DNA of 63,481 nucleotides, filler included, from Folioceros fuciformis (taxonomy: Eukaryota): the NCBI GenBank assembly GCA_049999805.1. It is 5 parts of 5 records of this genome, joined end to end, with 100 filler letters (N's around TTAATTAATTAA, not from the genome) between each part and the next. Parts side by side here need not be neighbours in the genome. Positions count along the whole stretch, not along the records: positions 1 to 19,974 come from JBNGIO010005372.1; 4 more parts are not named here. One strand, given 5' to 3'. Position numbers and translations under genes: made by a program. Shown in pieces: positions 9,982-34,900 of this stretch. A model generated the notes under the pieces. That model was not told the DNA's origin and made no database searches. It worked only from the letters and a program-made list of their open reading frames with translations. How positions within the stretch are numbered: position 1 is the first letter of the stretch; each line of letters starts with the position of its first letter.

Positions 9982-12351
9982 CTAAGAAGCAAATAGTGTC
10001 ACCTGATTGATCTCCCGAGCAATGCCTGCCATTTCTGGCGTATCTTCCATCTTGCGAAGCAGCTCGTCAATGATGCTAATCGTTCTTGCATCTGGAACAC
10101 ATCCCACACCTTGCATCTGATGCAAAAGCCGCAGCGAACTAGCACAATCTGCCTCTTTCATGTACCCAACCAGTAGAGAATTGAAAGTGAGCACGTCTGG
10201 GCTGCATCCATCGGTTGCCATTGATTCAAATAGCTGAACTGCCTTATCCATGTCTCCACTCCTAACGAGCACGTCAATCATTGTGTTGTAGGTGATAACA
10301 TCTCTCTGGATTTTCCTCCTTCTCATTTCTCCAAAAAGAACACCAGCCTCACGCACACTGCCGAGTTTGCCCAGAACACCAATGATGATGTTGTAGCTCA
10401 CTACATTCGGCTCCACCCCTTTTGTGGCTTCCATAATCTCAAATAGACAACAAGCTTTTCCACCCTCTCCATTCTTGCTCAGACCACCAATCAGAGTGTT
10501 GAAGCTGATGATATCTGGGTTACAGCCCGATCTCTTCATTTCTTCCCACAGTTCAAAAGCTCTCTCAATATCACCCACTTTGCACAGAGCTTTTAAAAGA
10601 GAGTTATACACTACAAGATTAACCTCTGCTTGCTGTTGGTCGCCATTACAGAGCTTCATCTCTTGGAACAAGCTGTACGCTTCATTGAGACGTCCCTCCT
10701 TGCCAAGACAATCGATAAGCGTAGAGTAAGTAACAGCAGTCGGCATTGCCTGCTTCAGCTTCATTTCTTCGAAGAGATGGAGAGCCAGATCAAACTTCCT
10801 TGCTTTTGCAAGGCCACAGGTGAGTGTGTTGTATGCGACCGGGTCATGTTTCCACCCTTTGTTCTTCAAATCAACAAAAAGGAGGTGAGAATCCTGCACC
10901 TGCCCAGAATCACAGTAAGCCTTCATGATAATATTGTATGTGATGAAATCAGGAGGCAACCCAAATTCCTCCATCTCAGCGAACAGACCTAAAGCATCTT
11001 GCAATTGGCCTGCCTTTGCCAGCGCATCAATCAACGTGTTGTATGCACTTGCATTCAGTCTCACTCCTCTCTCCTTCAAAACTGCAAAAACCTTCAAAGC
11101 ACCCTTGGTGAAACCTGCTTTGGTGAGTCCAGCAAGAACTATGGTAGAGGTGTACACATCCGGAGCGCATCCTGTACTAGTCATGTGATTGAAGAGCTCA
11201 GATGCCTCGTCTGCCTTCCCCGTCTTACAAAGCCCATCCATCAGAGTATTGTACGTTGTTGCATCTGGGGATACATTCATCTCCTTCATCTCTTCCAGCA
11301 ATGCCAGCGCCTTATCCATTTCACCGGCTTTCCCAAACCCGTTACAGAGGATATTATAGGCCCTAGTATTTGGACGCACCCCCTCCTTCTTCATAGCCGT
11401 GAAAACACGGGATGCTTTGTCCATTCTCCCAACCTTGGCCAACCCTTGCATTAGCACTGAGGTGGAGTATACATCCAGTGTGTAGCCACATTTCTTAGTC
11501 TCCCTCCACAGCTTCAGAGCCTTGTCCAATTCATTCCCTCTAGCAAACCCACAAATTAGAGCACCATAAGTCAACTCGTTTGGAACAAGACCCTCTCTTA
11601 GCATCTCCCTGTAGGTATCCCAAGCTTCGTCAATTTCCCCGCTCTTCGCGAGACTTGATATGACACATGTGTAGGTGTACGCATTCCTATCACATCCATC
11701 CTGCACCAATTGCCTATACACCTGGTGCACACCTTCATGATCCTCCGCCTTTGCAAACAGATTAAGCAGACAGTTGTAGATACCCCTATTAGGTTTCCAC
11801 CTAAACTTCTCCAACCAGTTGAAAACAACCTTGCACTCCTCCAATCTGGCGTGACCACAGCTAGCAAAAATCGTCGTCCACGTGGCAGTAGTGATGGGAC
11901 ACCCCTCCATTTCCATACTATTCAACACCTTCCAGATCTCGGACAGAGGAGTCACATTAAGCAGCAGAGCATTGTAGGTGAGGGTGTTGTGGCTGAAACC
12001 TCTTTCCTTTGCAACCCAGTCGAAGAACCTCCGTGCCTGAACTCCATCCTCAATGTTCCTCAAAAACTCGCTCACAATCACAGGCTCGAGGGAGTCATGC
12101 TGCAACTCCGATAAAGCTCTCTGTACTCCTGAATCCCATCTGCCCGTTCTCAAAGCAGCAAGTACTTTAGCAGAGGTTAATCCAGAAAAGGTGACACTCG
12201 CATTGGCCTCCAACCTCCTGCTGCTCAAACTGCGACCTTGTGAGCCCCGTAAAACGAACCTTCGTGCAACAAATTGTGAAGCAGACTGCTCAGCCCTGGC
12301 CAACGACCCCAGTATCCAACTCGGCAAGCTACGTCCGAAGAATTTGTCCAT
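9982..12351 (-). CDS. P-class pentatricopeptide repeat protein, 789 aa, intronless, probably organelle-targeted
   Basis: Long run of tandem 35-aa repeats (e.g. TYNTLMDGLCKTGKADEASELFNHMTSTGCAPDVY). No E or DYW domain. Arg/Ser-rich N-terminus. Confidence 0.95.
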   Translation of the reverse strand: MDKFFGRSLPSWILGSLARAEQSASQFVARRFVLRGSQGRSLSSRRLEANASVTFSGLTSAKVLAALRTGRWDSGVQRALSELQHDSLEPVIVSEFLRNIEDGVQARRFFDWVAKERGFSHNTLTYNALLLNVTPLSEIWKVLNSMEMEGCPITTATWTTIFASCGHARLEECKVVFNWLEKFRWKPNRGIYNCLLNLFAKAEDHEGVHQVYRQLVQDGCDRNAYTYTCVISSLAKSGEIDEAWDTYREMLREGLVPNELTYGALICGFARGNELDKALKLWRETKKCGYTLDVYSTSVLMQGLAKVGRMDKASRVFTAMKKEGVRPNTRAYNILCNGFGKAGEMDKALALLEEMKEMNVSPDATTYNTLMDGLCKTGKADEASELFNHMTSTGCAPDVYTSTIVLAGLTKAGFTKGALKVFAVLKERGVRLNASAYNTLIDALAKAGQLQDALGLFAEMEEFGLPPDFITYNIIMKAYCDSGQVQDSHLLFVDLKNKGWKHDPVAYNTLTCGLAKARKFDLALHLFEEMKLKQAMPTAVTYSTLIDCLGKEGRLNEAYSLFQEMKLCNGDQQQAEVNLVVYNSLLKALCKVGDIERAFELWEEMKRSGCNPDIISFNTLIGGLSKNGEGGKACCLFEIMEATKGVEPNVVSYNIIIGVLGKLGSVREAGVLFGEMRRRKIQRDVITYNTMIDVLVRSGDMDKAVQLFESMATDGCSPDVLTFNSLLVGYMKEADCASSLRLLHQMQGVGCVPDARTISIIDELLRKMEDTPEMAGIAREINQVTLFAS

Positions 12352-13159
12352 GAGTTAGAAAAACCTGTCCATCACATGTATTGAGCTGTCTCCATCGGAC
12401 CCTCGAGTTTCTTCCACAGGACTTGGTCAATCATGTCCGTCGTGCAAGTACCCATAGCCCTTCAGCTGCCCCTGCATCGCATCGCCAACAGCGTATGGTC
12501 CGATGACTAAAGGTATGAGAGTTCCTTTCCTTCCTGCCCCACATTGCTGCAAAGCAATCTCATGTCAAAGTTAAAATTTATATTTTAACTTGAAATTCCA
12601 AGAAGTTTATATTTTAATGTATTGGTATAAAATTTGTGAATTGTGTAGATTCATAATATTTAAGCACCTGCGGATTAGCAACCCATAAGGAGGCATACTT
12701 AAACTCTAGTACTAAAAAACATTAAATACAGACTAAATATTATATAAAATATAATCAAATCAACAAAAATAATTTTATATTATCAAAAATAAACACAAAA
12801 TGATTACTCTCTACCAAATCAAGATATTCTTGTTCTAATATCTTGGATAACATAATTGAAACCTATCAAGTATTACATAGCATATGATGATGTACACCTC
12901 ATATTTTATGCAATAATTAAATCACGCTATACGATTGGAGTTCATAGTCTATATGCACTACATATTTGTTTATATGGTATCATGAGTAACAAAGGTCTCT
13001 CATGACTAACACAAATGAACCCTTTCTATTATTGTACAACATGATGATGCTTAACATATGAAACCTTTTTACTACATCTTGATCCATGTTCACAGTCAAT
13101 CTTTCCTACTTATATAGTTATACAGTCAATCATAAGTAAACAAACATAAAAAGGTAAAC

Positions 13160-14760
13160 ACTATGATGAACTCAAGTGTGGTCGAACCCCAGACAAGAGA
13201 TGATGCTTCACACACAACAAGTTAGTCTCGCTGCCCGAGATCTAAACACGGGTTATAGTTCAACCCTAGGGTTGCGAGGTGCGCTCTATGATGAACTCAA
13301 GTGTGGTTGAACCCCAAGCAAGAGATGATGCTTCACACAGAACAAGGTAGTCTCGCTGCCGAGATCTGAACCCGGGTTATAGTTCAACCCTAGGGTTACG
13401 GGGTCCAAACTCCATACTTAAACCATTATATTACAACGAGGTTGGTGTTCACCATTAATGTTGTCTATGTGTCTACTTAAGAGTTACCTAGGTTTTAACA
13501 TAAGTGAAACTTTTTTACTATTGCACAACATCATGATGCTTTACAAAAGCAAGTGAGTCACATTGCACAATATATGGTGCTTCACAAAAGCAAGTGAGTC
13601 TCTATTCCACAACACGATGATACTTCATAAAAGCAAGTGAGTCTTTATTACACCATATGATGATGCTTCACAAAAGCAAGTGAGTTTGATTGCCTAGATT
13701 CAAAAGAAGAACCATAATATGGTGATGCTTCACAAAGGCAAGTGAGTCTTGTTGCTTAGATTCAAAAGAAGAACCACAATATGGTGATGCTTCATACAAA
13801 CAAGTGAGTCTCCTAGCAAGATTCGAACCCGAGTCACAGTTAAAACCGATGGGTTGCAGGGTCCAAACTCTATACTTGACGCACCATACTACAACAAGGT
13901 TGTGGCTCACCATTGGTGTTTTCTAGATGTGTACTTATGTGTTATTTAGGTTTCAACACAAGTAAAACTTTTTAGCTATTGCTGAATACGATGATGGTTC
14001 ATAAAAGCAAGTGAGTCTTGCTGCCGGGATTCGGGTCGTCGTTGAACCCTAGGGTTGCAAGGTTAAAACTCCGTACTTGAACCACTATACTACAATAAGG
14101 TTGTTGTCTGTCATTAGTGTTTTCTAGTTGTGAACTTACATGTTATACAGGTTTTAACATAAGTAAAACCTTTTTACTATTGTACAATATAATGATGCCT
14201 CATAACAACAAGCGAGTCTTGTTGCCAGGATTCGAACCCGGGTTGTAGTTGAACCCCAGGGTTGTAGGGTCTAAACTCCATACTTGAACCACTATACTAC
14301 AACGAGGTTGTTGTTCATCATTGGTGTCTTGTAAATGTGTATTTATGTGTTATCTAGGTTTTAGCATAAGTAAAACCTTTTTACTATTGCACAATATGAT
14401 GATGCTTCATATAAACAAGTGAGCCTCGTCGTTGGGATTTGATCCTGGGTCATAGTTGAACCCGGGATTTGATCCTGGGTCATAGTTGAACCCTAAGGAA
14501 TGCTGGGTCCAAACTCCGTATTTGAACCACTATACTACAACGAGGTTGTTGTTCGTCATTAGTGTTTTCTAGATGTGTACTTCTGTGTTATTTGAGTTTC
14601 AACATAAAAAAAACTTTTTAATTATTGCACAATATGATGATGCTTCATAAAAGCAAGTGAGTCTCCCAACCCGGGTTGTAGTTGAACCCTAAGGTTGCGA
14701 GGTCCAAATTCGTACTTGAACCACTATACTACAACGAAGTTGATGTTCGTGGATGATGTT
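13160..14760 (-). repeat. Tandem array of ~207-bp units, each carrying a tRNA-like gene, with an internal 42-62 bp minisatellite derived from the unit
   Basis: tRNA-like parts start at 13809, 14016, 14217, 14424 and 14662. Spacings are 207, 201 (6-bp deletion), 207 and 238 (30-bp duplication). Further copies at 13351 and a partial one at 13226. The core TGATGCTTCAYAAAAGCAAGTGAGTC also repeats alone at 13533-13810. Confidence 0.9.
14217..14306 (-). ncRNA. tRNA-Asp-like Pol III-type element with extended central arm (well-preserved array copy)
   Basis: Minus strand reads CTCGTTG TA GTAT AGTGGTTCAA GTAT G GAGTT-TAGACCCTACAACCCTGGGGTTC-AACTA CAAC CCGGG TTCGAAT CCTGG CAACAAG A. It has an A box, B box, acceptor stem, D arm and T arm but no canonical 7-nt anticodon loop. 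Confidence 0.65.
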
Positions 14761-16529
14761 TTTTAGGCGTGTACAAGCACACATGTAAGTCTACGTAGGC
14801 AAAAAGGTTCATCGGGCACAAACTTTAGAACCTCGTCGAGATGAACATCATCATGCAAATGCCCAGGGAGTTGTCAAAACAGACGTGGCGCCAGAAAGAC
14901 AGGTCTCATAAAGGACCAGAAGATGGGGAGCCTACGCCTCCAACCACAATCAAGATTCCTGCAAGGGAGCAAGGGGAGAAGTTGAAGGAGTAGCAACAAT
15001 GGAAGAAGCACCCATGACCAGTAGCTCCCAAAGAGTCCGATTTAAGTTATTGTTTGCTTTAACCAAGTGACACCTGACCCCATCAGCCCTTTGAACAAAC
15101 TATTGTATACGGGACACATGGTATCCTTGGTTGGCCTAGAAGAATGAGGTGCCATAAGTGAACAAAATAGAATGCCGTAAAGAGACCAACAATAAACACT
15201 TTGCCAGCTCCAACCTGCTGGCATAATTTGGCTTCCAGCCCTGAATACTGAAACGCAGAAATACCGTGGAACTAAAGCTCTCCGAAAATCTTCAAGTCAA
15301 TCAGAAATTTCGAATCCCAGATGAAATCATAACATGAAGAAAATAACAAAGAGACGAAAGATCTTCCAAACCCAAGTCGAAGAATAAGTGGATCCCTTCA
15401 CTACCAATATAAGGAGTGTATCTATAGGTGGTCAAGGGATGTCCCAAGAGATCCACATAGTAGGAGGTACGGTGGAAGCTTGGGGATCCAAGAGAAGACG
15501 GATCCCAATAATGGAGGGGAGCCAGTAACTCAGCCTCTCTTTTGGAGCAGTCCTAGAGGACTCAATGATGTCATCGAGGACTCAATGATGTCATGGTTTA
15601 GAGGACTCAAGATGTCAAGTTCTGTACGATGTTGGCCATGGGTCTACTTAGGTCTCTTTATGAACTTAGAGAAGGAATGGGCTTAAGCACTTTGGAAATT
15701 GCTTAGTGAACAAAGTAACTTTTATAGTTGATGGTCATCCAGATGTAGGCCTTTGGGATGTATTTCTCTTATTCTAAGCTTAGAAGCTCAGAGCTTTGAG
15801 TAGGACTACCCTAATGGATTACAATGGCCAAAGTACACATGGAAAGTGGGTGCCAATCAGTGGGCACCCACTTTCTTTGATGATGGTCATTACTCTTGAA
15901 AAACAAAGCATTCCATCTTCGGCCTAATTACACAAGAATTATGTCAAAGACATATTACAAAAGAGAAACACATGGAAGTCTATGCGTATTTTTGTGAAAA
16001 GGGTCTACTAGTAGAGGTTAAGGGATAGTATTCCTTAACCTCTTTGCATGGTGTTATATCTACTTATATAGCATGATGAATAACACAAATGAAACTTTTG
16101 TATTTTTGTAAAGTATGATGATATTTCATATTTTATTAATTTTTACTATTGTATAGGATAATGCAATGACATGAAACAAAGCGAAGAAAGTGGTTTGTGT
16201 TATTCTATTTCCTTGTTATCGAAAGGAACTTATTTATTTTAGTAGAAAAAGATGGAAAAAAAATCCACCCCTAGAGAGAGATAAACCATGAAAGGAACAC
16301 TAGGGGCCCCAACCTTGAAGCCTAATGAACGCTTGTTATCTAGTTATGTAGCATCATTTGTAACAAAAATAAAACTTTTGTATTATAGTAAAGTATAGGG
16401 TGTAGTATCATATATATCATATAAAGTATCANNNNNNNNNNAGTATATACTATTGCATAATATGATGATACTTCACAAAACAAAGTGATTCTTGTAATAA
16501 ATTAATAAACTGAAGAAATGTGGTTGAAA

Positions 16530-16619
16530 TCTTGTTGCCGGGATTCGAACCCGGGTTGTAGTTGAACCCCGTGTAGTGGCGATTCGAACTCTGTACTTAA
16601 ACCACTATACTACAACAAG
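16530..16619 (-). ncRNA. Dispersed copy of the tRNA-Asp-like element
   Basis: Perfect CTTGTTG/CAACAAG acceptor stem and perfect CCGGG-TTCGAAT-CCCGG T arm. The central hairpin is kept with a different sequence (GAGTTCGAATCGCCACTACACGGGGTTCAACT). Confidence 0.65.
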
Positions 16620-17734
16620 ATTGGTGTTTCCTTGGTAACTAGTTGTGAAATATCATTATTATTAATGATACATTTGTGCTAAATAATATGTTGCACAAAA
16701 CAAAGCAATTCGAATCCAACAAGAAGTTGAACATCATGTAGTGGTTGTCCAAACTTTGTTTAGTACAACTAAAGTGAGATTAGTTTGTGTTTCTTATGTT
16801 TGCTACAACCACCACGAGATTAGTTTGTATTTCCTAAGTATCTATGATATCTTAGGTGTTACTGTTGTTTTAGGCTCATTAGCTTCCCACGCTAGCCCCT
16901 ATGGCCTGGTGGACTGTGGTGCATGACTCAACTCTTTCGAGGTAGCTAATGACATGGTTGACATTGGTAGATTCTCACCTCTTTCGAGGTAGTTGATGGC
17001 GTGGTGGACTTTGGTGAATGTCTCACCTTCTTCGGGGAAGATGAAATCGTAGATATTGTTGGTAGCGTTTAAGGTTAATATCTTAGCCTCTTGGTAGGTG
17101 TGCATAGCTAAAGTTGGTGGGGCCTAGTGTGAGAGGAGGGTAGCCCACCACCTACAGGTAGGAGAGGGTTCATGTGTTTATCTCTCGTATGAGGAGGGGC
17201 TACACAAAGAAATGAACCACCACATTCAACTCTCTTCTCATGACAAGTCCTCACGCTCTGCAAAGCGTAAGAATCTCGTTGCCAACTATGCGCCATCATA
17301 GCACCTGGTTGTGGCTAGAGTTGAAGTGGTTGAAGTGCTTGGCAGATGGCTCATACTCTTTCATGGGCACCCTTGCAAGTTACTTCCCTTGTGAATGGTT
17401 GTTGTGTTGCTGTGGGTGTGTGGCGATACATGTGTGACTATTGGCTTGAGAGTAGGCTCTAGGGAAAGACTCCCTGGAAGTTCTCGCTAACATGCCCAAG
17501 CACGCAACAACCGGCCCACGGAAAAACTTGTTGGTTGTTGGACGTAGGGAGACAAAAAACTAGATTGTTGGGTTGAGGAAGGTGTCGTTGGGAGCCTGAG
17601 GAAAGGGTATTAAGTGTAAGGAGGTAAAAATCGATAGGGGGAGTGTTGGGGTCATTCTAAATGAGGGTATGGTGTCCTCCCATTGTCTAAACGTGTTGTA
17701 GGATTGGTAGGTACGTGAATGGGAGTGTTGATTG

Positions 17735-17912
17735 TTGTAGGGAACAATAGACATAGCTGAAGAGGCTCGGAGGAGAGTGAGTGTTGATTATTGTAGGGAA
17801 CGATAGACCTAGCCGGAGAGGCTCAGAGGGGAGTGATTCTTGGGAAGACTACAAGGGAACGATAGACGTAGCCGGAGAGGCTCGGAGGGGAGTGATTCTT
17901 GGGAAGACTATA
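17735..17912. repeat. ~55-60 bp tandem repeat x3 inside a degenerate TE-like segment
   Basis: AGGGAACRATAGACNTAGCYGRAGAGGCTCRGAGG..GAGTGA occurs three times. Confidence 0.75.
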
Positions 17913-18009
17913 ATGACCGTGAAATTGATGTAGCCACAATACATGCACCATACCTACCTGTCCACAAAACCCCATAATCATACCATCCTAGCAAAGGCAC
18001 ATATAACTA

Positions 18010-18490
18010 AACTCACTTGCTTTAGAAGCATCATCATAGAATCCCCATCATCGTACCATCCCTCCAATGGCAATGAGACTTACCTTCTTTAATTTATGAA
18101 GCATCATCATAGAATCCCCATCATTTTATAATCCCGGCAAAGAGACTCGCTTTTGTGAAGCGTAATCATAGAATGCTCATCATCATACAATCCCGTGCAA
18201 CAGGCTCATAAAATCTGGCAACGACAATGAGACTCATGTGGTTTACAAAGCATGATCACATTGTGGTTCTTTGGAATCATGCAGACTTTTATGAAACAAC
18301 GTCATATTGTGGTTCTGTCGAATCCAAGCAAGGAGACACTTGCTTTTGTGATGCATTCAGTTTTATGCTTTTGTGATGCATTCAATATTATGCAACAGAG
18401 TCTCACTAGCTTTTGTGAAGCATCATCATATTGTGCAAGGGTAAAAAGGTTTTACTTATGCTCAAACCTAGATAACACGTAAACTTACAT
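18010..18490 (+). repeat. Inverted copies of the array-derived minisatellite and spacer
   Basis: Repeated ACTCACTTGCTTTTGTGAAGCATCATCATA-like units, plus AAAAAGGTTTTACTTATG...AACCTAGATAACAC. Both are the reverse complement of the 13.5-14.7 kb unit. Confidence 0.8.
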
Positions 18491-19700
18491 GTGTGTTGTG
18501 GATTCAAAACCCCGGGCACTGATTGCCGACGGGTTCCACCTTTAGTGGCCACACTTATCCCACTGTCGTTGAGACATTGGGTTCCGTTCCCACGAAGGAG
18601 CAATGGGGTTCCTTGCTGCTGTGGATGGAGGGTCGGACTCAATCGACTCGATGATGGATTCGAGGGCTCCCCTCCAACTCCGATCAGGTGTAGGATAGGC
18701 CTTGCTGTCCAGCAATCAGCTGCACCTCTCTTGGTGCCCACAAACTCACTCCAACCACTACAACGACCCTGACCTCTTAGGTGTGCGACTTCCCTCACTC
18801 ACTCACTCTCTCGTTCCAACATTAACACCAGCAACCAACAAGGACACCACTACCTTCTACACTTCCCTACTAACTCCTCCTACCTGGCAAGAGTCACTGG
18901 ACTAACCCCAAAGAAAAGAGAGAAGGGAACACTCTCCCCTCTCGGATATCTCCTCCCCACAACCTTACCAGACGCCATGAAACATGGCTGGCCTACAGCA
19001 CTTGTCCAAACAGGGAGCAAGAGTGGACAAGTCAAGAGAACGACACATCCTTTACAATCAAGAGCTAAGGGCAAGCCCCTTCACCCTAGTCATTACACCT
19101 TGTGATCCTACTAGACACTGTACAACCGGCAACACGCGGCTTGCGATCCTACCAGACGTTGCACAGCCGGCAACACACTGCAGGTCCTAACCCAAGCAGG
19201 GATAGACCACAAGAGCTCATGTAGAGAGTACCTCAAAGAGCTCACGAAGTGATAGACTGAATCCCAAAGTGAATGACTACCTCCTCCTACAGGCTCACCT
19301 GATCTTATAGGAGCCTCTCTCTCTCTGACTTCACCTCTCTCTAACTTGACAAATATTATTTTAATAGTGATGAAATAAGTCTAGATTTAGGGCACTATTC
19401 ATTAGGGCCTCTTAACTTTAATTATCTACCTAGGGTTATTTAGGTAGTTATTAGCTATAGTGGTTATATTAGTTATAACCACTTACGGTTACAACTACTT
19501 ATGGTTACAACCACTTATAGTTGTAACCGCCCAACTACCTAGCCTATATAAAGGCTTGTACTTTACTTCTTATATACATTCAATTACATTCTAAGATTTG
19601 CATCTAAGAGCAAGGCTAGATTTTCATCAAATAGGCCCACTAGCCTAACCGGCTGTCACCAACCACTTATTTAGACTTCTAGCACATCCTGCCACCAATG
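18490..19700. mobile_element. Probable LTR sequence
   Basis: Begins TGTGTG. Its first ~140 bp recur inverted at 31561-31697, where they end in ...CCACACA. Non-coding, with CTATATAAAG near 19545. The right boundary is uncertain. Confidence 0.45.
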
Positions 19701-19974
19701 AGCTGGCCCTACCACCACAAGGATCTACCACTTCTTAGACTATCCTGAGACTTCGGAGGATGTTTGATCTGCAAAGATCTGTGAACGCCGCCTCTTCCTT
19801 GCTAGATGGCCACCCGCTAAATCTTCCCCTTCAACTGTTCACCCAAGATGGCTGAGCCAGCCTCCAGGGGAAGAGTATTAGTAGTGGGAAAGATAGAGAG
19901 AAGGTCAAAAGCAATGGGATCAACAGTCGGAACCTGGCCTGAAAACGGTAGCTTATTCAGTGGAATCAGCTTCC

Positions 19975-20075: not shown

Positions 20076-22370
20076 CAAATGGCACACCATATGGCTTTAG
20101 CCGTGATGGATCCTCCAGACAGGCCAATGTCTTTCAAAGAAGCCCTGCAGTCCCCACAAAGATCAGAATGGCAAAAGGCAATTGACAGCGAGTATAAATC
20201 ACTAATTGATAACCAGACATGGAAGCTCGTCAAATTACCTGCAGGACGCAAACCCATCACCTCGAAATGGGTTTTCAAGCTTAAGCTAAACCCAGATGGA
20301 TCAGTGGCTAGGTACAAAGCACGCTTAGTAGCCAGAGGCTATACCCAAGTCTAGGGACTAGACTACAATGAGACTTTCAGCCCTGTAGTGAAACCAACTT
20401 CTATGCGGATTCTCCTGTGTTATGCAATTTAGAATCACCTTATCGTCCATCAAATGGACGTCAAAACGGCTTTTCTAAATGGGCCATTGGACGGACTTAT
20501 TTACATGGAGCAACCCAAGGGCTACATTGAAGATCCTACCTTGGTCTGCGAACTGCTGAAGTCGCTTTATGGGCTGAAGCAGTCTTCCCGTATCTGGAAC
20601 GGGAGAGCCGACAAAAAGCTTCGCTCACTTGGTTTCGTTCCACTTTCGGCAGACTGCAGCGTCTATATTCTGCAAACCACCAACGCCCTCTGCATCATTG
20701 CACTCTATGTAGATGATAACTTTATTTTTGCAAGCAACGAAAGCATACTCACCAGAGTTAAAAAGCAGCTCTCGGATGAATGGGATATGACTGATGTCGG
20801 TCCCCTTCAGTTCGCCCTTGGTATCCAGTTCTCTTTCAATCATATTGACAGTTTAGTCACCCTACACCAAGAGCACTTCATCAGGAAGATCCTCACCAAG
20901 TTCAACTTACAAGACATCAACCATGTCTCTACTCCAGTTGCAGCAAGAGAGAAGCTGTCTGTACAAGACTATCCTACATCAGATGAAGACAAGGCTGAGA
21001 TGGCCCACATACCTTATCGCGAAGTTGTGGGTAGCCTCCTGTACTTGGCATGTTGGACCAGACCAGACATTTCTCAAGCAATAGGGGTCGTATCCCGTTA
21101 CCTGTCAAACCCCGGCAGCANNNNNNNNNNNNNNNNNNNNNNNNNNNNNNNNNNNNNNNNNNNNNNNNNNNNNNNNNNNNNNNNNNNNNNNNNNNNNNNN
21201 NNNNNNNNNNNNNNNNNNNNGTACAGTCCTCTGTCATTAGCTGCCAGGGAAATATGCTGGATTTGTCAGTTTCTCTTAGAGATCGGAGTTCAGCAAAGCT
21301 CGCCTACAACCTTGCAGTGCGATAACCAATCTGCCATCGCACTATCTGCAAACCCTATCCTACACGCCCGTTCCAAACATATTGAAATCCAGTTCCATTA
21401 CATCAGACAGGCAGTGGAGCGGAAGATCATAGAGCTTGTCTATTTTCCTACAGCTGAGAATTTGGCAGATATGCTCACAAAAGGATTGTCAAAGCTACTA
21501 CATGAGCAACATCGACTGTCACTGGGGTTAGAAGAACACAAAACTTATTTCAGCTCTACCCCCGATGCCATTAATCAAGTGGCACCTTCTTAAGCTCCGC
21601 GAGCATGTGCGCGCATGGCGGTTAGGGCACCCAACAAACTTGTTGTGCCGCCACGGCGAACGCCATCAGCACTCGATCTGTACCTTTGGAGTACCTAAAA
21701 GCGATCACGGGACAGACGTCAGCGGCCACAGTTGTGGCTTGGATGAAGCTCACACTTCCCCACACAATCAGACACAGCTGATGGCGTCGCTTACCCGTAT
21801 GGATGCTCAGCTCAGTTTTCCTTTTCTGGCCATTTGGTGTTCCCTTCCATACTCGCACGGCAGCGTGAACACACCGCGCAACAGGGCATTGTGCTCTTCC
21901 TCAGGTAGCTGTGTATCTTGTTCCTGCTCGGCGTGTTGCGTGCTGTAGCAAGGCAGTATCAGCAGCAGCTCCCTAGCGGCGGAGGAATCCGGTGGGAGCC
22001 ATCTCGGGCGGAGGCGCAATCTCTTGGTAGGGCGGCGCGCGTTAGGGTAAGAATGAGGCACGGGGCGGTGCTGTTGAGACGAGTGTCATGGCTCATCCTG
22101 ACACCGCTCCACCCGGCCTTAACCGTTGATTCGCGTATTTGGCCTGAGAGGGGGTATTAAAATACTAGGGTATAACAGCCCTAATACGGAATAACGTTTG
22201 GTATTTAATTGGAGCGTTACATAGTGTAGCGTTTCGCTAAATAGCGTTTCGTGTTTTAAGTTAGGGTTGAGACGGTTACGAACAGAGCCCTTTTGTATCG
22301 CTGTTTCAATGCAAGAATACACTTCTTTGTGCTTTCATGTGTATGCGTGAGGTGGTCTGATGTTTTGGGT
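20076..22370 (+). mobile_element. Ty1/copia fragment (family A, copy 1): RT-RNase H, PPT, partial 3' LTR
   Basis: KWVFKLK..ARYKARLVARGYTQ, HQMDVKTAFLNG, LYVDD, CDNQSAIAL, RSKHIEIQFHYIR, ADMLTKGL. In-frame TAG stops. PPT GAGAGGGGG at 22146-22154. Confidence 0.92.
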
Positions 22371-28539: not shown

Positions 28540-31500
28540 ACTAAATTAATAATGCAATATAAAATGTTTACAAAAATGTGTTTATATACTCATGACCTAG
28601 AGTCATGTTATTTCACTTCAACTAAACATATTTAATCTAAATTAAATATATACAACCGTAAGTATGACATAGCTTGTTATCTTAACACTCCCTCTCAAGC
28701 TTCACGCTTAGGTATCGGTTTGTCCAAAGAAGTCTCCACAAAACAAAACAAAACCAATTGTTCACCAGCGCCAATGATTCTCCATGCATGGGGTGTCCCC
28801 CACTCTGTGGTAGAAAACACATGTGCTAGCAGCATGGTTGCAGCATCTCTAAGTTTTGAATAAAAAACTCATGAACAAACAACTTGAAGATAAATAACTC
28901 ACAACTCATTGTCTGCATGTAGCTTCATCCATTGATTTATCTATTCTCCCATGTATTATGTGCCATTCACATATACTGAGTAATCACCCAGCCCTGAGCC
29001 ATCCATATGCTTATAGTGTTTTGGCTTTGAAAGTGCTTTGGTTAGAATGTTGGCCATATTATCATCTATTCCAAAAAAGCTAACCTTTGTTACCCCTCCA
29101 TCCACAGCAACCTTGATGTAGTGATGGGATATCTCTAAATGCTTGGTGCGTGCGTGGAAATAGGGGTTAGCAACCAAAGCAAGCATTGACATGTTGTCAC
29201 AAAGTATGGGGGTAGGGTCCTGTTGTGTCTGCCCTAAGTCTTGTAAAAACCTTCTCTTCCATTCAGCTTCCTTGGTGGCTTCAATGAGAGATTTATACTC
29301 TACCTCCGTTGAAGACAAAGATATAGAGGGTTGCTTCTTGCAACTCTAATTGATGGCAGCACCTGCAAGAAGAAAGCAATATGTGGAGAGGTTGCAACGG
29401 GAGTCAGCATCAGACGCCCAATCGGCATCTGTAAAACCTTGTAGAATGAGTTTAGCCTTGCCACTACGCTTATATATGAGCCCATGTGTCAAAGTGCCTT
29501 TTAAGTATTTAAAAATACGCTTGACGGCAACCCAATGAGCCCTACCCGAATGTTCTAGAAATTGCAACATTGTGCTTACAACATACTGAATATCAGGTCG
29601 AGTCCAATTTGCCACAAAAATGAGACTTCCGACTGCGTGTCTATATGGAACATCCTGCATATCCAACTGCTCCTCTCGGGTTTGCGCACATTGAAGACTA
29701 GTGAGCTTCACACCTGTAGCAGCTGGAGTAGTGGCTGGTCGTGCCTCATCCATATGAACGAGTTTTCCTTGTACTTGTTTGATCTTGATGTACTTGTTTT
29801 AATGTATGGCCATCACCCCATAAGCCCTCACCAACTGGATCCCTAAACAAAACTTCAAGTCACTAATATCCTTCATTTCAAATTTGTTAGATAAAAGCTG
29901 CTTGACATGTTCTAAAAGGGTCTTGTCATTTGTGTCTAATATTACATCATCAACATATACAGCCAAAATGACGTATGAGGAGCCTTGGGTAAGCATATGT
30001 ATATTGGAATCAGCAGTACTTTGTACAAAGTTGATTTCCAATAAGTAAACATGCATGGTAAAGTACCATACCCTACCAGATTGCTTGAGGCCATAAATAC
30101 ACTTGAGAAGTTTTAAAACTTTGTTGGGGTATTTAGAATCAACATACCTCTCAGGTTGTTGCATGTAAAGTTCCTCCTCAAGCTTGCCGTACAAATACGT
30201 TGTGCAAACATCCATTTCATGCAGATACAAATCATGTTCCGTTGCCATAGCAAGTAACATCCTAATGGATTGAGATCTAGCCACAGGGCTAAATGTCTCT
30301 TGATAATCTAGGCCTTCAACTTGTGTGAATCCCCTAGCAATGAGTCGAGATTTATAACGTGCTATCTCTCCTTTTGAGTTGAGCTTGTGCTTGAAAACCC
30401 ACTTGCATGAGATGGGTTTTCTGCCATGTGGCAAATCCACTAACTTCAAAGTATTGTTCTTGATCAAGGATTGATACTCATCCTCTACTGATATGCGCCA
30501 CTTATCACCACTAGAGCCAGATAGGGCTTGCTTCAAACTGATTGGCTCATCAGGCATGACAGCAACAAGTGATGTGGAAGTGTTGCGAAAATCTAGAGAC
30601 TCATAGGGGGGCTCCATCCACTCGGCTCTAGGTGGTCTTTGGCGGGTGGATCTAAGCAACTTGGGTTATGGTGGAACTTCTACAACCTGTGGCGGTATGA
30701 CGTCTTGCTCTAAAGCAGGTTCATGGTCATCTTGAATAAGGTCAGGAACTACATCTTCCATGAGAGGTTCAAGGTCATGTGCAAGGTCATGCTAGATATT
30801 TTGTGCATCTAAAACAGGCGGAGGGTTAGCTGGCAACTCATCATCTTGTGGATACACAGCAGGTACCTCATCAGTGTCCTGCTCATCATCATGATCAACT
30901 AATGGATGTGCTCCCTCTGCCATAGGATGTGCTCCCTCTACTAACGTTGCCAGTTCACCATGAGCATAGCTAGGTTCAATGAAAGTGACACTTCAAGCTA
31001 AGGTTAAAGAGTGAGTAACGGGATCATAAAGCTTGTATGCCTTGGCAGTCTCGCTGTATCCGACAAAAACAAGGGCCTTTGCTCTCATGTCAAGCTTCCT
31101 CCTCTTTTCGGAAGGGATATAAGCGAATGCCTTAGCTCCAAATACTCAAAGATGCTGTAAACTAAGTTTATGCTTCTAGAATACCTCATATGGTGTCCTT
31201 CCAGGTATAGCACTAGTGAGCACCCGATTAAGAATGTACGTCGCAGCAACTACAACCTCTGCCCAATACCCTTGAGGGAGACCTGCCCAAAGCAGCATAC
31301 TCCTTGTCATTCCTAACAGAGTTTGGTTCTTGCGTTCGGCAACTCCGTTCTGTTGTTGATTATAGGGTACAATCAGCTAACGCCGAATGCCATGTTGTGC
31401 AAGGTACTTGTCGAAAGCGGCGTTGACAAATTCTGTCCCATTGTCCGTGCACAGCATTCTAAGAAGATGACCAGACTGTCACTAGGCAACTAGCAACCAT

Positions 31501-31946: not shown

Positions 31947-34900
31947 ATGTCCCTCCTCCTAGAAAAGAAATCAAGGACAGATAGATTAAATGAGACTAAC
32001 TATGCCACTTGGGAAATGAGGATGGCAGCCATCCTTAAAGAGCAGGAACTAATGGATATAGTTGATGGGACCCTGGCATGTCCTACCAATCCAAGCCCAG
32101 CACTAGCTGCTAGCACCCAAGCATCCTTAGATGTATCTACCTGGCATAAAAAGGATAAGAGGGCCAGAAACATCTTGCTTTCAGCCCTAGACAGAAATAT
32201 GATACCACATACACAAGGCCAAACAACAGTTGCTGCTGTTTGGTCAATTTTCAAGGAAATGTTCGTTGCCAAGGATCCTATGGCTCACCTCAATGCCACA
32301 AGGCAATTCTATACAATGAAAATAAAAGAGACGTATACCATCAAGCACCATGTGCATAGGTTTCGAATTCTTTGGGCCAGATTTGCTTCTGCAGACTCAA
32401 GAGGATCTAAAATTTTAGAACTTCAAGCTGCAGTTATCCTCCTTTCATCTCTCCTTGCAAGCTACCATACAATTGTGAGTACACAAGCTTCAGTATTAAG
32501 ACAAGCTATCAAATTAGCTGTTGGAGGCACTCTAGCCATTACGTTATCAAAGATTATTGGAGCTCTGATTAAAGAAGAATCTAGCCGTACGGGCATAGGC
32601 CGTGCCTCCTCTTCTCACCAAAGTCAACACGTCCTATACACTTCCAGAGGAAGAGGGCGAGGCAAAGGTGGTTTTTCGCCTAGAGCTTCATATAGTGGAA
32701 CTGGAACTAATTCCAATTCCAATTCTGAACACCGCAAGATCAAGAGCCCATGCAACTGGTGCCGTATTCTTGGACATTTTGAAAATGAATGCCACAAGAA
32801 GCAAGCATGAGAGGCTCAATGTCTTGCCGCAGAAACTCATGTGGTTAAATTAAATCCCAATGGCAAGTCACCTGCAATTTTAGCAGTATGCTTGTCACTT
32901 ACAAAGGCAGAGAAAACAATGTGGTATTTTGACTTAGGAGCAACTAACCACACCTATTAGTCCATAGAAATGTTTAGGTCATACTCCAAATTTGCAACCA
33001 ACCAGTTTGTGCTTTTAGGTGATGACAGTGGACTCTCCATTGAGGGACATGCGGAAGTCCAACTCAAACTCAATGGCAGACAACAAGCCATTTTGTCAGG
33101 AGTTTTACATGTTCCACAAATAAGTAAAAATTTGCTGTCAGTTCACAAACTTACTTCGAACATTCTCTGCAATTGACCTTCAGCCTAGGGTCCTGCACCC
33201 TTACACCTGCAAACCAGAATTCACTTGTGTTAGCAGTTGGTGTACCATATCATGGTCAATATAGTTTGCAAGTTATGCTTGAACCTATCCATAAAGCTAA
33301 TGTTGTTGATGCAAATTCAGGTGTCAATACTACCTTCCTTTGGCACTATCGGCTCTATCACCCTAGTCTAGCCTACTTATAGCAAATTCTTGAGCATCCA
33401 GAGCTATATAAAGATGGATTGTCTTTTGCTCTTGATGCCAACACGTTTTGTAAGAGCTGTCAATATGGTTAAATCTCACAAAAACCCTATAATGATCCTG
33501 AACCAATTAAGGCAACTTCTTTGCTGGAGGTCATCCATTCAGATATATGTGGTCCTATGTCCACTCAATCTTTTGCAGGAGCTATTTACTTCCTCTCCTT
33601 TACAGATGAATGGAGTTATTACTCCCATCTCTACTTTCTACAAAGCCGCCAGCAAACATATGCTAAGTTTGTGGAATACGTGGCCATGGTTGAAGCTCAA
33701 ATAGGATGCTTCATCAAGAGTTTTTGCGATGACAATGCTAATGAATATTTGAGCTTAGACTTCCATGAATCTGCAAGGCAAAAGGCATTATCCATCAGCT
33801 GACCATCCCATATCATCTGCCACATAATCCCTATGCAGAAAGATATAATAGGACCTTGCAAGAAAGGACGAGAGCAGCTCTTACTTTGGCTGGACTCACA
33901 CAAGGTTATTGGGCGGAAGCCGTTGACTCTATCAATTATGTATGCAACAAGCTACCTTTGAAACCATTTTATGACACCACACCTTTTGAAAGGTGGACTG
34001 GTCACAAGCCGCGTATCGACCACCTTAGGACTTTTGGTGCCATAGCTTATGCTTTCATACCAAAAGATAAACCCAAGAAGATGGACAACAAGCTACTAAG
34101 ATGTATTCATTGGATATTCAGACACTATTAAAGGATACAAGCTTTATAATCCATCTACTCGGGAGCTATCTATAGCTCTCAGCATCAGCTTCAATGAGTC
34201 TTACATCTTGCAGTCACATGAGAAATTAGCCTCTACATATGATACCTTACCAACAACTACTATCAATGGCCATTCACCAACATTGAGTAAATCCTCACTT
34301 AACAACAAAAACGATTACTTTCATACATACTATGAGCCAGAAGTGTTTGCTGATGTTGATGCACACTCAGATCCCACTGGTTATATTGAGCCTGCTGCCC
34401 CAGATGATGGAATTTTGGACCAACAGCCTCTAGATCATGCAGCACTTGAGCTTCCTCCACAACTTGAAGATCATTAGATGTTGCAATATTACCCGATGAT
34501 CTTGTTGAACATGTCCATGAAGAGGAAACTTTACCATTGCGACAATCTACAAGGACTCACAGACCTCGTTCAGCATGGTTAGAACTTCCCTATGAGCATG
34601 GTGATGTCTCTACATCCAAATCTATTGTTGCCTCTAATAGTGTTAGAGAAAGCCTGACACAAATGGCCAACCATATGGCCTTTGTTGTCATGGAACCTCC
34701 AAACACTCCTTTGTCCTACAAAGAGGCCCTTGCCTCACCACAACATACAAAATTGCAAAAGGCCATTCACCATGAGTATAAATCCTTGATTGATAATAAC
34801 ACTTGGAAGTTAGTCAAATTACCTCTAGGCCGCAAGGCCATAAATTCCAAATGGGTGTTTAAGCTAAAGCTAAATCCAGATGGTTATGTTGCCCGATATA

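Follow-up and report, generated by a model that had tools for sequence, protein, structure and literature searches.

Evidence for a small, decaying tandem array of rearranged tRNA-Asp(GUC) pseudogenes in Folioceros fuciformis

We analyzed a stretch of 63,481 nucleotides of Folioceros fuciformis DNA (GenBank assembly GCA_049999805.1), hereafter the window, which joins five parts of five records end to end; its first 19,974 positions come from JBNGIO010005372.1. On the minus strand at 13226-14738, this DNA contains a series of seven tRNA-like units, one of them partial, which probably constitute a small, locus-bound and decaying tandem array of rearranged tRNA-Asp(GUC) pseudogenes that arose from one nuclear gene. 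A preliminary description had counted six near-complete copies and one partial copy. We recovered all seven on the minus strand at the low coordinates it gave, although "near-complete" is generous: of the six, only C, E, and F are free of indels. Two further sets of family sequences had been overlooked, an eighth and best preserved copy (H) and a group of inverted remnants. The features are as follows.

14662-14738, minus strand: unit A, 77 nt; lacks the T loop, the T stem's 3′ strand, and most of the acceptor's 3′ strand
14424-14544, minus strand: unit B, 121 nt; box B mutated
14217-14306, minus strand: unit C, 90 nt; box A and box B exact, one acceptor mismatch
14016-14099, minus strand: unit D, 84 nt; 6-nt T-arm deletion, TTTT downstream
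13809-13898, minus strand: unit E, 90 nt; mutations in the D loop, T stem, and 3′ acceptor strand
13351-13440, minus strand: unit F, 90 nt; box A and box B both mutated
about 13226-13286, minus strand: unit G, partial, from the hairpin to the 3′ end
14100-14216, minus strand: representative 117-bp spacer, with a T-run trailer, an A/T-rich middle, and AACAACAAC
13518-13811, minus strand: 62-bp and 43-bp sub-repeats, found by TRF
13651-13811, minus strand: 62-bp sub-repeat unit, made of the 3′ T-stem/acceptor end plus trailer
13518-13685, minus strand: 43-bp sub-repeat unit, chiefly trailer (CTCACTTGCTTTTGTGAAGCATCATCAT...)
13007-13074, minus strand: spacer fragments that close the array at its downstream end
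16530-16619, minus strand: copy H; 41.8 bits with the Rfam tRNA model, acceptor stem fully paired, box A and box B exact
about 18000-18490, plus strand: inverted family remnants, comprising several 3′-acceptor-plus-trailer sub-repeats and one spacer

The core starts of units A to F are spaced 194, 238, 207, 201, and 458 bp apart, and TRF reported a period of 207 (3.4 copies, 76% matches, 13775-14463), in agreement with the period of about 207 bp first proposed. Partial unit G lies 125 bp from F, and the two have a trailer in common. A 20-nt word from the D arm matched seven times with at most three mismatches, compared to 0.00 matches expected from 100 shuffles. Similarity among the array units is 72-83%, and most of them are broken. 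Several had been said to carry deletions or duplications; we found deletions in A and D, and TRF revealed an exact 30-bp tandem internal duplication in B that runs from the 3′ arm of the hairpin into the T arm. Two of the eight copies, H (41.8 bits) and C (30.8 bits), pass the gathering score of 29 for the Rfam tRNA family (RF00005), while unit F, at 27.6 bits, falls below it and no score was returned for the other five.

Sequence comparisons support the descent of the array from cytosolic tRNA-Asp(GTC). Using a D-arm pattern, we fetched 123 metagenome loci, in which ARAGORN called 116 tRNAs. Among these 116, the seven distinct sequences that best matched the 5′ and 3′ parts of the unit were all tRNA-Asp(GTC) of the GTCGTTG...CAACGGCG type, in line with the match to plant cytosolic tRNA-Asp(GTC) that the preliminary description gave for the D and T arms. 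In alignments with the tRNA-Asp(GTC) genes of two of these loci (L009 and L041), the acceptor, D, and T arms were identical except for a 2-nt insertion in the D loop and changes in the T loop and at the acceptor end. The flanks are also alike: AACAACAAC is found directly upstream of the tRNA-Asp genes in L041 and L064 (96.4% identity over 28 nt), and the matched metagenome genes have A/T-rich upstream flanks with CAA and T-run trailers. A family-specific D-arm pattern had no match in the metagenome contigs and none in the viral contigs. Its one match in a prokaryote genome contig was not a tRNA, and we discarded it as a chance match.

Compared to tRNA-Asp genes, the whole family has the first acceptor pair flipped from G1-C72 to C1-G72, and U2-G71 changed to U2-A71. 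The C1-G72 flip is kept in six of the seven copies that have both sides. As C1-G72/U2-A71 amounts to one compensatory double change, it hints that pairing mattered at an earlier stage.

The units lack an anticodon arm of the usual kind. Neither Rfam nor ARAGORN detected a 5-bp anticodon stem with a 7-nt GUC loop in them. The Rfam alignment places 23-25 nt at the site of the 7-nt anticodon loop. ARAGORN gave no consistent anticodon: its calls included taga and tg and, when introns were allowed, identities that differed per copy (Asn, Ala, Cys, or undetermined). The earlier view that the units are non-decoding therefore held. The units do not fit an ordinary intron-containing tRNA, which would have a canonical anticodon loop, an intron after position 37, and one identity throughout, as the ARAGORN intron models vary from copy to copy; passages of PMC11700998 report no intron-containing tRNA-Asp in the plant genomes studied there.

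In place of the anticodon arm, the preliminary description had seen a 33-nt hairpin of about 12 bp. Pairing was found in 76.6% of cells, but the outermost G-A pair forms in none of the eight copies, so the stem is about 11 bp long with one bulge. Minimum-energy folds recovered the inner hairpin in two of the six folded copies (C and D). Because local alignment of the hairpin to the tRNA-Asp anticodon arm did not outscore shuffles (consensus, p 0.89; H, p 0.15), we dropped descent from the original anticodon arm in favor of an origin from the T arm. In five of the eight copies, the hairpin aligns locally to the variable-loop/T-arm segment with a shuffle p < 0.05, although these p values are modest and the eight copies are not independent; examples are CAACCC-TA-GGGTTC against CAACCCGGGTTC and, in H, GTTCGAATC with 9/9 matches. 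Partial duplicates of this segment thus seem to make up the hairpin; they would pair with each other because the segment is nearly palindromic (CCGGG TTCGAA. CCCGG). On this reading of the sequences, the anticodon arm was indeed replaced, and its replacement is better described as paired partial duplicates of the variable-loop/T-arm segment.

The exact 30-bp duplication in unit B is a recent slippage of the kind proposed for the hairpin.

Core and spacer are repeated together in the array. In the representative spacer at 14100-14216, AACAACAAC forms the upstream-flank end and directly adjoins the next core, and CAACAA-type words are present upstream of the units as claimed. Upstream of copy H lies sequence homologous to the spacer, and 16448-16488 is homologous to the trailer; as H shares flanking spacer on both sides, it fits a copy made at the DNA level and not a retrocopy. 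Both observations bear out the amplification at the DNA level that had been proposed.

We also weighed a retroelement origin. The core might have begun as the head of a SINE derived from a tRNA, or the unit might be the LTR of a Helenus-type miniature LTR element that was later tandemly arrayed like Cassandra. Like SINE2 elements, the family combines a tRNA-derived sequence and a non-tRNA middle with internal A and B boxes, both of them exact in C and H. A tRNA-derived head with these boxes is a SINE2 hallmark. Helenus elements have tRNA-like LTRs, and one such family is known to form tandem arrays (PMC10886601). As in Helenus and Cassandra (PMC10886601, PMC7215508), the repeat unit here has a polymerase III promoter derived from a small RNA and can form tandem arrays. 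Unlike a SINE, however, the unit keeps a closed acceptor stem, ends in neither a tail nor a simple repeat, and is joined to its neighbors by a common spacer that was copied with it; SINE body, tail, and target-site duplications were not found, as the preliminary description had held when setting the family apart from typical SINEs. Unlike Helenus and Cassandra, it revealed no LTR, PBS, or PPT structure and no LTR-internal-LTR layout, and its 207 bp leave no room for both an LTR and an internal part. The initiator-tRNA primer-binding-site word, the only PBS type tried, was absent from 12900-19000; with up to two mismatches it matched five times in the whole window, always beyond 34 kb, when 5.5 matches were expected by chance.

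Contig depth also tends to speak against a dispersed element. Over unit A, summed contig depth was 20.9-78.5 in X1 and 14.7-44.2 in X2, compared to 9.52 (X1) and 7.51 (X2) in adjacent bins at single-copy level. Unit A thus reaches two to eight times the single-copy depth in the contigs of one sample, where depth does not equal copy number, and not the hundreds expected of a retroelement; we see no sign of a dispersed family. Loose ends of contigs contain at least one T-arm variant that is absent from the window, so a few more copies lie elsewhere. On balance, we consider a retroelement origin very unlikely. A neighboring repeat at 14961-15220 reaches a contig depth of 1295.6. X1 and X2 are two DNA runs of one sample that both contain this stretch and may be the source of the window; a further run, X3, resembles a converted-DNA library, and X4, tentatively taken for RNA, gave no coverage of 14545-15300, a result that bears neither way on expression.

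The inverted remnants raise a different alternative. Inverted pairs join 13010-14665 with the plus-strand remnants at 18138-18490; the best arm pair, 93 nt long, is that of 14335-14427 and 18398-18490, which are 87% complementary. The array and the remnants (at 18000-18490) might therefore be sub-terminal repeats within a roughly 5.5-kb element (about 13007-18490), either a low-copy DNA transposon or another composite element, that captured a tRNA-Asp gene, and such capture would explain why the family is inverted at both ends. However, the only inverted repeats found in 12000-19900 consist of family material, the two arrays are very different in content and size, and copy depth is low in the contigs of the one sample. 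Nor did any of the nine open frames scanned between the two arrays and around them, within 15042-19380, contain a transposase or other Pfam domain. Of the readings we weighed, we give this one the least credence.

If the units encoded a functional RNA, their cores should be better conserved than the flanks and their stems should covary. The preliminary description, which proposed a family of functional tRNA mimics, had named in advance a core no better conserved than its spacer and a lack of covariation as evidence against this idea, and this is what we found. Among five units, pairwise identity was 0.793 in the core and 0.810 in the spacer, and the 3′ third of the core was lowest, at 0.70 with 194 gap cells. 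In all eight copies (28 pairs), 85.8% of cells were paired compared to 86.2% in shuffles. The covariation predicted for a structured noncoding RNA did not exceed that of shuffled controls (score 0.131 versus 0.129), a comparison of low power with only eight related copies. The proposal of a functional mimic family thus found no support on either count. Judged by consensus patterns for the two boxes, five of the eight copies have an exact box A, but only C and H have both boxes exact. Substitutions among units comprise 77 transitions and 33 transversions. Consensus CpG sites account for 44 cells: CpG is kept in 25, and TG or CA stands in 12. Several units had been credited with TTTT about 12 nt downstream; a T4 run near the 3′ end is present in two of the seven array units, A (12 nt downstream of the core) and D.

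Some features would nonetheless fit a working polymerase III family, in which these units or a master elsewhere are transcribed from the A and B boxes inside them. Cleavage of the transcript by RNase P and RNase Z would then leave a tRNA-like RNA, about 90 nt long, that does not decode and has an extended arm, and the array in the window would be a partly dead gene cluster of that family. Copies C and H have exact A and B boxes and exceed the Rfam gathering score, the consensus has CAA words upstream and a T run in its trailer, and the C1-G72 flip persists in nearly all copies that have both sides. In addition, the outer stem is common to copy H and the array, even though the inner hairpin of H, which contains GTTCGAATC, differs from that of the array. 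The fold energy of H is well below that of its shuffles (z -3.1). Against such a family stand the lack of extra conservation in the core and of covariation beyond shuffles, the absence of an exact box A or box B from six of eight copies, the scarcity of T4 runs, folds that mostly favor other pairings, and contig depths that give no sign of a larger family. We regard it as unlikely.

A narrower proposal seems to us quite unlikely: that the unit encodes, or did until recently, a non-decoding RNA that derives from tRNA-Asp and is transcribed by polymerase III, with the T-arm duplicates as its extended arm and C and H as the surviving copies. If it were true, C and H might give rise to an RNase P/RNase Z substrate, to tRNA-like fragments, or to TFIIIC-bound sites beside a PPR gene, and the first acceptor pair, flipped yet still paired, would attest to earlier selection on the fold.

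A decaying pseudogene array, the reading we prefer, would have formed in four steps. First, we infer with moderate support that the ancestral gene lost its anticodon arm and that partial duplicates of its own variable-loop/T-arm segment took its place; these probably arose by slippage or unequal exchange, and their pairing would have created the 33-nt "hairpin". Second, the rearranged gene was demonstrably copied as a DNA unit of roughly 207 bp that included its putative polymerase III flanks (AACAACAAC and the trailer T run); copy H reached a site 1.8 kb away, and some material was copied in the opposite orientation about 4 kb away. Third, the copies evidently drifted with no visible constraint on the RNA, as seen in the deletions and the 30-bp duplication, in a secondary 62-bp/43-bp amplification of the 3′ end and trailer, and in transitions that outnumber transversions, with TG/CA where CpG once stood. 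Fourth, most units would no longer be able to act as polymerase III genes, while C and H, with intact boxes, could bind TFIIIC or yield a short non-decoding transcript. Nothing in these comparisons suggests selection on any RNA from C or H.

The array resembles known plant tRNA clusters in its organization. Such clusters include the tandem nuclear clusters of Arabidopsis tRNA-Pro, tRNA-Ser-Tyr-Tyr, and tRNA-Cys genes and of maize tRNA-Ile genes (PMC11700998, PMC13437025, PMC10701932, PMC12308677). As in these clusters, amplification here was head to tail at the DNA level, with units of a few hundred bp and flanks that contain CAA upstream and a T run downstream. Five units (A to E) lie within 1 kb, at 13809-14738, with their flanks, and the pertinent part of PMC11700998 defines a cluster as at least three tRNA genes within 1 kb. 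However, the known clusters contain decoding genes with very uniform flanks, whereas no unit here is decoding, and the units have diverged and mostly broken down. A literature search for plant repeats derived from tRNA-Asp led to papers on tRNA gene clusters, SINEs, and Helenus, among which we did not find this unit described, and its sequence words had no match in full-text papers.

Crucifer satellites were reportedly proposed in 1986 to descend from a tRNA gene. As in satellites derived from SINEs or tRNA genes (PMC10702118), a tRNA-related segment is here part of a tandem monomer and secondary sub-repeats have formed, but with about seven units and a low copy number, the array is not a long satellite. 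It illustrates clearly, on a small scale, that copying a plant tRNA gene along with its promoter and terminator flanks can produce a tandem repeat, and that internal duplications resembling a designed hairpin can start from a T arm that is nearly palindromic. Should C or H be shown to be transcribed, they would make the remodeling of a tRNA gene into a new small RNA readily accessible to study.

The family also bears on tRNA annotation. According to passages of PMC13437025, tRNA pseudogenes and "tDNA-like" sequences are left out of curated plant tRNA sets. Like such sequences, the copies described here score near or above the tRNA threshold, have no valid anticodon arm, and would be flagged as pseudo or undetermined; unlike them, they share a specific rearrangement, the substitution of T-arm-like duplicates for the anticodon arm, that was itself amplified. 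Caution is warranted in annotation, as two non-decoding copies, C and H, exceed the Rfam threshold for tRNA.

Direct reading of positions 13000-15000 located the tRNA-Asp-like units of the preliminary description on the minus strand. TRF returned a period of 207 bp (3.4 copies, 76% matches, 13775-14463), an exact 30-bp duplication at 14434-14493 in unit B, and sub-repeats of 62 bp and 43 bp at 13518-13811. A 20-nt D-arm word had seven matches at no more than three mismatches, with 0.00 expected; six are units A-F, and the seventh, copy H, is absent from that description. A BLAST search of the window with one unit found further family members, and direct reading and an inverted-repeat search confirmed the inverted material. 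The tandem array is real and had been well described. Its most likely reading is a decaying array of pseudogenes from a rearranged tRNA-Asp gene.

13007-13074: terminal spacer fragments (BLAST)
~13226-13286, minus strand: partial unit G (BLAST)
13351-13440, minus strand: unit F
13809-13898, minus strand: unit E
14016-14099, minus strand: unit D
14217-14306, minus strand: unit C
14424-14544, minus strand: unit B
14662-14738, minus strand: unit A
16530-16619, minus strand: copy H (D-arm word match)
18094-18482, plus strand: inverted family material (BLAST)

Six copies are present, as described, but "near-complete" is too generous: in the alignment, only C, E and F (three of the six) are free of indels. 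In A, the T loop, 3′ T stem and most of the 3′ acceptor strand are missing; B carries the 30-bp duplication, and D is 6 nt short in the T arm. Units F and G (13226-13450, minus strand), 125 bp apart, have a common trailer (..GTGTGAAGCATCATCTCTTG..GGGGTTC.ACCACACTTGAGTTCATCATAG) unlike that of A-E; here the 3′ part of the core was duplicated locally together with that trailer, as a separate event.

The Rfam tRNA model scored H at 41.8, C at 30.8 and F at 27.6 bits (gathering score 29). For reference tRNAs, we used a loose D-arm pattern to scan metagenome contigs; this gave at least 123 loci with at least 116 ARAGORN tRNAs, and scored these against the 5′ 28 nt and 3′ 29 nt of the unit. Each of the best seven distinct sequences among the matches listed was a tRNA-Asp(GTC) of the GTCGTTG...CAACGGCG type; the pattern preselects the D arm, and the independent evidence is confined to the acceptor and T-arm agreement. 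Upstream of these genes the sequence is A/T-rich, with CAA words directly before the gene, and T runs follow the gene; these are described features of plant tRNA genes (PMC11700998). The AACAACAAC that precedes the units here also lies upstream of two of these tRNA-Asp genes (L041 and L064; 96.4% over 28 nt). Because of the acceptor and T-arm agreement, the similar flanks and this common upstream sequence, derivation of the unit from a tRNA-Asp gene, flanks included, is well supported, in keeping with the D- and T-arm match to tRNA-Asp(GTC) given in the preliminary description.

In the Rfam alignment, C, F and H have 23-25 nt in place of the 7-nt anticodon loop. With introns disallowed, ARAGORN found C alone and gave it a 4-nt "anticodon"; once introns were allowed, it called C Asn, B Ala and H Cys and settled on no identity for F or E. 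The enlarged loop and the disagreement between copies uphold the proposal that the units do not decode. An ordinary intron-containing tRNA, against which that proposal was to be checked, was rejected, as the intron models give a different identity for each copy; PMC11700998 reports no tRNA-Asp with an intron in the plant genomes studied there.

We also rejected the tRNA-Asp anticodon arm as the source of the 33-nt hairpin that stands in its place, since their similarity is no better than chance. It is the 3′ part of the unit itself that the hairpin resembles. The stretch CAACCC-(TA or TG)-GGGTT(C), present in C, D, F and G, corresponds to the variable loop and the beginning of the T arm (CAACCCGGGTTC), and the 5′ arm of the H hairpin contains the T loop GTTCGAATC (9/9). 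The resemblance reached p <0.05 against shuffles in five of eight copies, which count as one event, not five, because the copies share ancestry. Thus, the hairpin was likely built from the unit's own variable-loop/T-arm segment. Because the T arm is nearly palindromic, adjacent partial copies of it could pair with each other, which would build the long stem and explain the minimum-energy folds of F and E, in which the hairpin 5′ arm pairs with the T arm instead. The 30-bp duplication in B is probably a recent instance of the same process.

To assess conservation, we aligned five units from end to end, joining E across its sub-repeats by coordinates. Pairwise identity was 0.885 in the 5′ acceptor and D arm, 0.783 in the hairpin and 0.702 (194 gap cells) in the variable loop, T arm and 3′ acceptor; the spacer thirds gave 0.840, 0.803 and 0.784. 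Overall, the core (0.793) is no better kept than the spacer (0.810). When the cloverleaf with its long arm was counted on eight copies (28 pairs, 197 cells), paired cells (85.8% versus 86.2%), pairs with double changes (3 versus 2.3) and the covariation score (0.131 versus 0.129) were at the level of shuffles. The structure outdid slid versions of itself (85.8% paired versus at most 50%), as expected, since it was read from these same sequences. The acceptor-stem double change, C-G to U-A at the third pair, is explained by methyl-cytosine decay because it lies on CpG on both strands, so the caution over CpG sites was warranted. Among 44 consensus CpG cells, 25 are intact, 12 are TG or CA and seven are other; changed cells make up 0.250 of CpG columns versus 0.149 of other columns, and transitions outnumber transversions 77 to 33. 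Minimum-energy folds were better than shuffles for H and for B with its duplication (both z -3.1), marginal for F (-1.8) and no better for C, D and E (-0.2, 0.3 and 0.8). Exact box A and box B (consensus patterns) are kept by two of eight copies, C and H. The evidence says that the RNA is not under constraint, and the functional tRNA-mimic family originally proposed is not supported. We give some weight to a working polymerase III gene family, as C and H look intact, and the first acceptor pair is flipped relative to tRNA-Asp yet still paired.

Amplification at the DNA level, also proposed earlier, is supported: core and spacer are repeated together as one unit, and H is preceded by spacer homology and followed by trailer homology, with an insertion between. 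Since family homology flanks it, H is a DNA-level copy, not a retrocopy. We mapped contigs from three DNA runs (X1-X3), all from one sample, on 14545-15300. Contig depth, which is not copy number and comes from a sample that may be the window's own source, was 9.52 (X1) and 7.51 (X2) in the three bins adjoining the array (14753-14830) and 20.9-78.5 (X1) and 14.7-44.2 (X2), or 2-8 times as much, over unit A. This excess is roughly that expected from the 8-10 copies in the window itself, and nothing in contig depth points to a large dispersed family. Loose contig ends include one T-arm variant absent from the window, which means that there are a few additional copies or another haplotype. An origin as a SINE or as Helenus, a miniature LTR element with tRNA-like LTRs, is disfavoured by this low depth, the closed acceptor stem, the flanks common to copies, and the finding of neither a tail nor, in 12900-19000, a primer-binding-site word for initiator tRNA.

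Just upstream of the array, 14961-15220 is a high-copy repeat, with depth up to 1295.6 (X1) and 554.5 (X2) versus 9.52 and 7.51 in single-copy bins; the open frame scanned in it (15042-15296) and two adjoining frames (15301-15686) matched no Pfam family. The 85 change places of X3 on 14545-15300 comprise 54 C>T and 15 G>A among others, a pattern unlike that of X1 and X2. X3 therefore resembles a library converted by bisulfite or enzymes, from which the methylation of the array could be read.

The window is plant nuclear DNA with 14 runs of N (assembly gaps), and also holds an RCC1-repeat ORF, a dirigent ORF and the following features.

9982-12351, minus strand: intronless P-type pentatricopeptide-repeat ORF, 789 aa (PPR_2, E 1.4e-169, 15 stretches)
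16684-16774, minus strand: long inverted repeat directly upstream of H (mir-239, an animal microRNA model, 25.8 bits; gathering score 49)
16901-17028, plus strand: short tandem repeat, period 47 bp, 2.7 copies
17723-17910, plus strand: short tandem repeat, period 56-59 bp, 3 copies
20454-21593 (plus), 29799-30659 (minus) and 31947-32810 (plus): Copia-type reverse transcriptase and gag fragments

The pentatricopeptide-repeat ORF is on the strand of the array and begins some 650 bp downstream from its last remnant. The mir-239 match is most likely chance; one arm of that inverted repeat resembles the family's trailer motif. The two short tandem repeats lie between H and the inverted remnants and have no relation to the tRNA-like unit. 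The inverted remnants suggest a composite DNA element with inverted sub-terminal arrays, against which stands that we found no other terminal repeat and, in the nine open frames scanned, no coding domain.

Searches of papers, by sequence words in the full text and by topic, found no description of the unit. Tandem tRNA gene clusters are well described in plants (Pro, Ser-Tyr-Tyr and Cys in Arabidopsis, Ile in maize; PMC11700998, PMC13437025), and curated tRNA sets leave out tDNA-like sequences (PMC13437025). The array is spaced as such clusters are, but their members must be real tRNA genes and its units are not. On a 5683-bp metagenome contig, the loci L074, L075 and L076 repeat the same three D-arm matches at identical offsets, their starts separated by 1984-1985 bp, and ARAGORN calls tRNA-Asp(GTC) among them, some with point changes. 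The contig is thus a tandem module with several tRNA-Asp genes, so such genes do cluster elsewhere.
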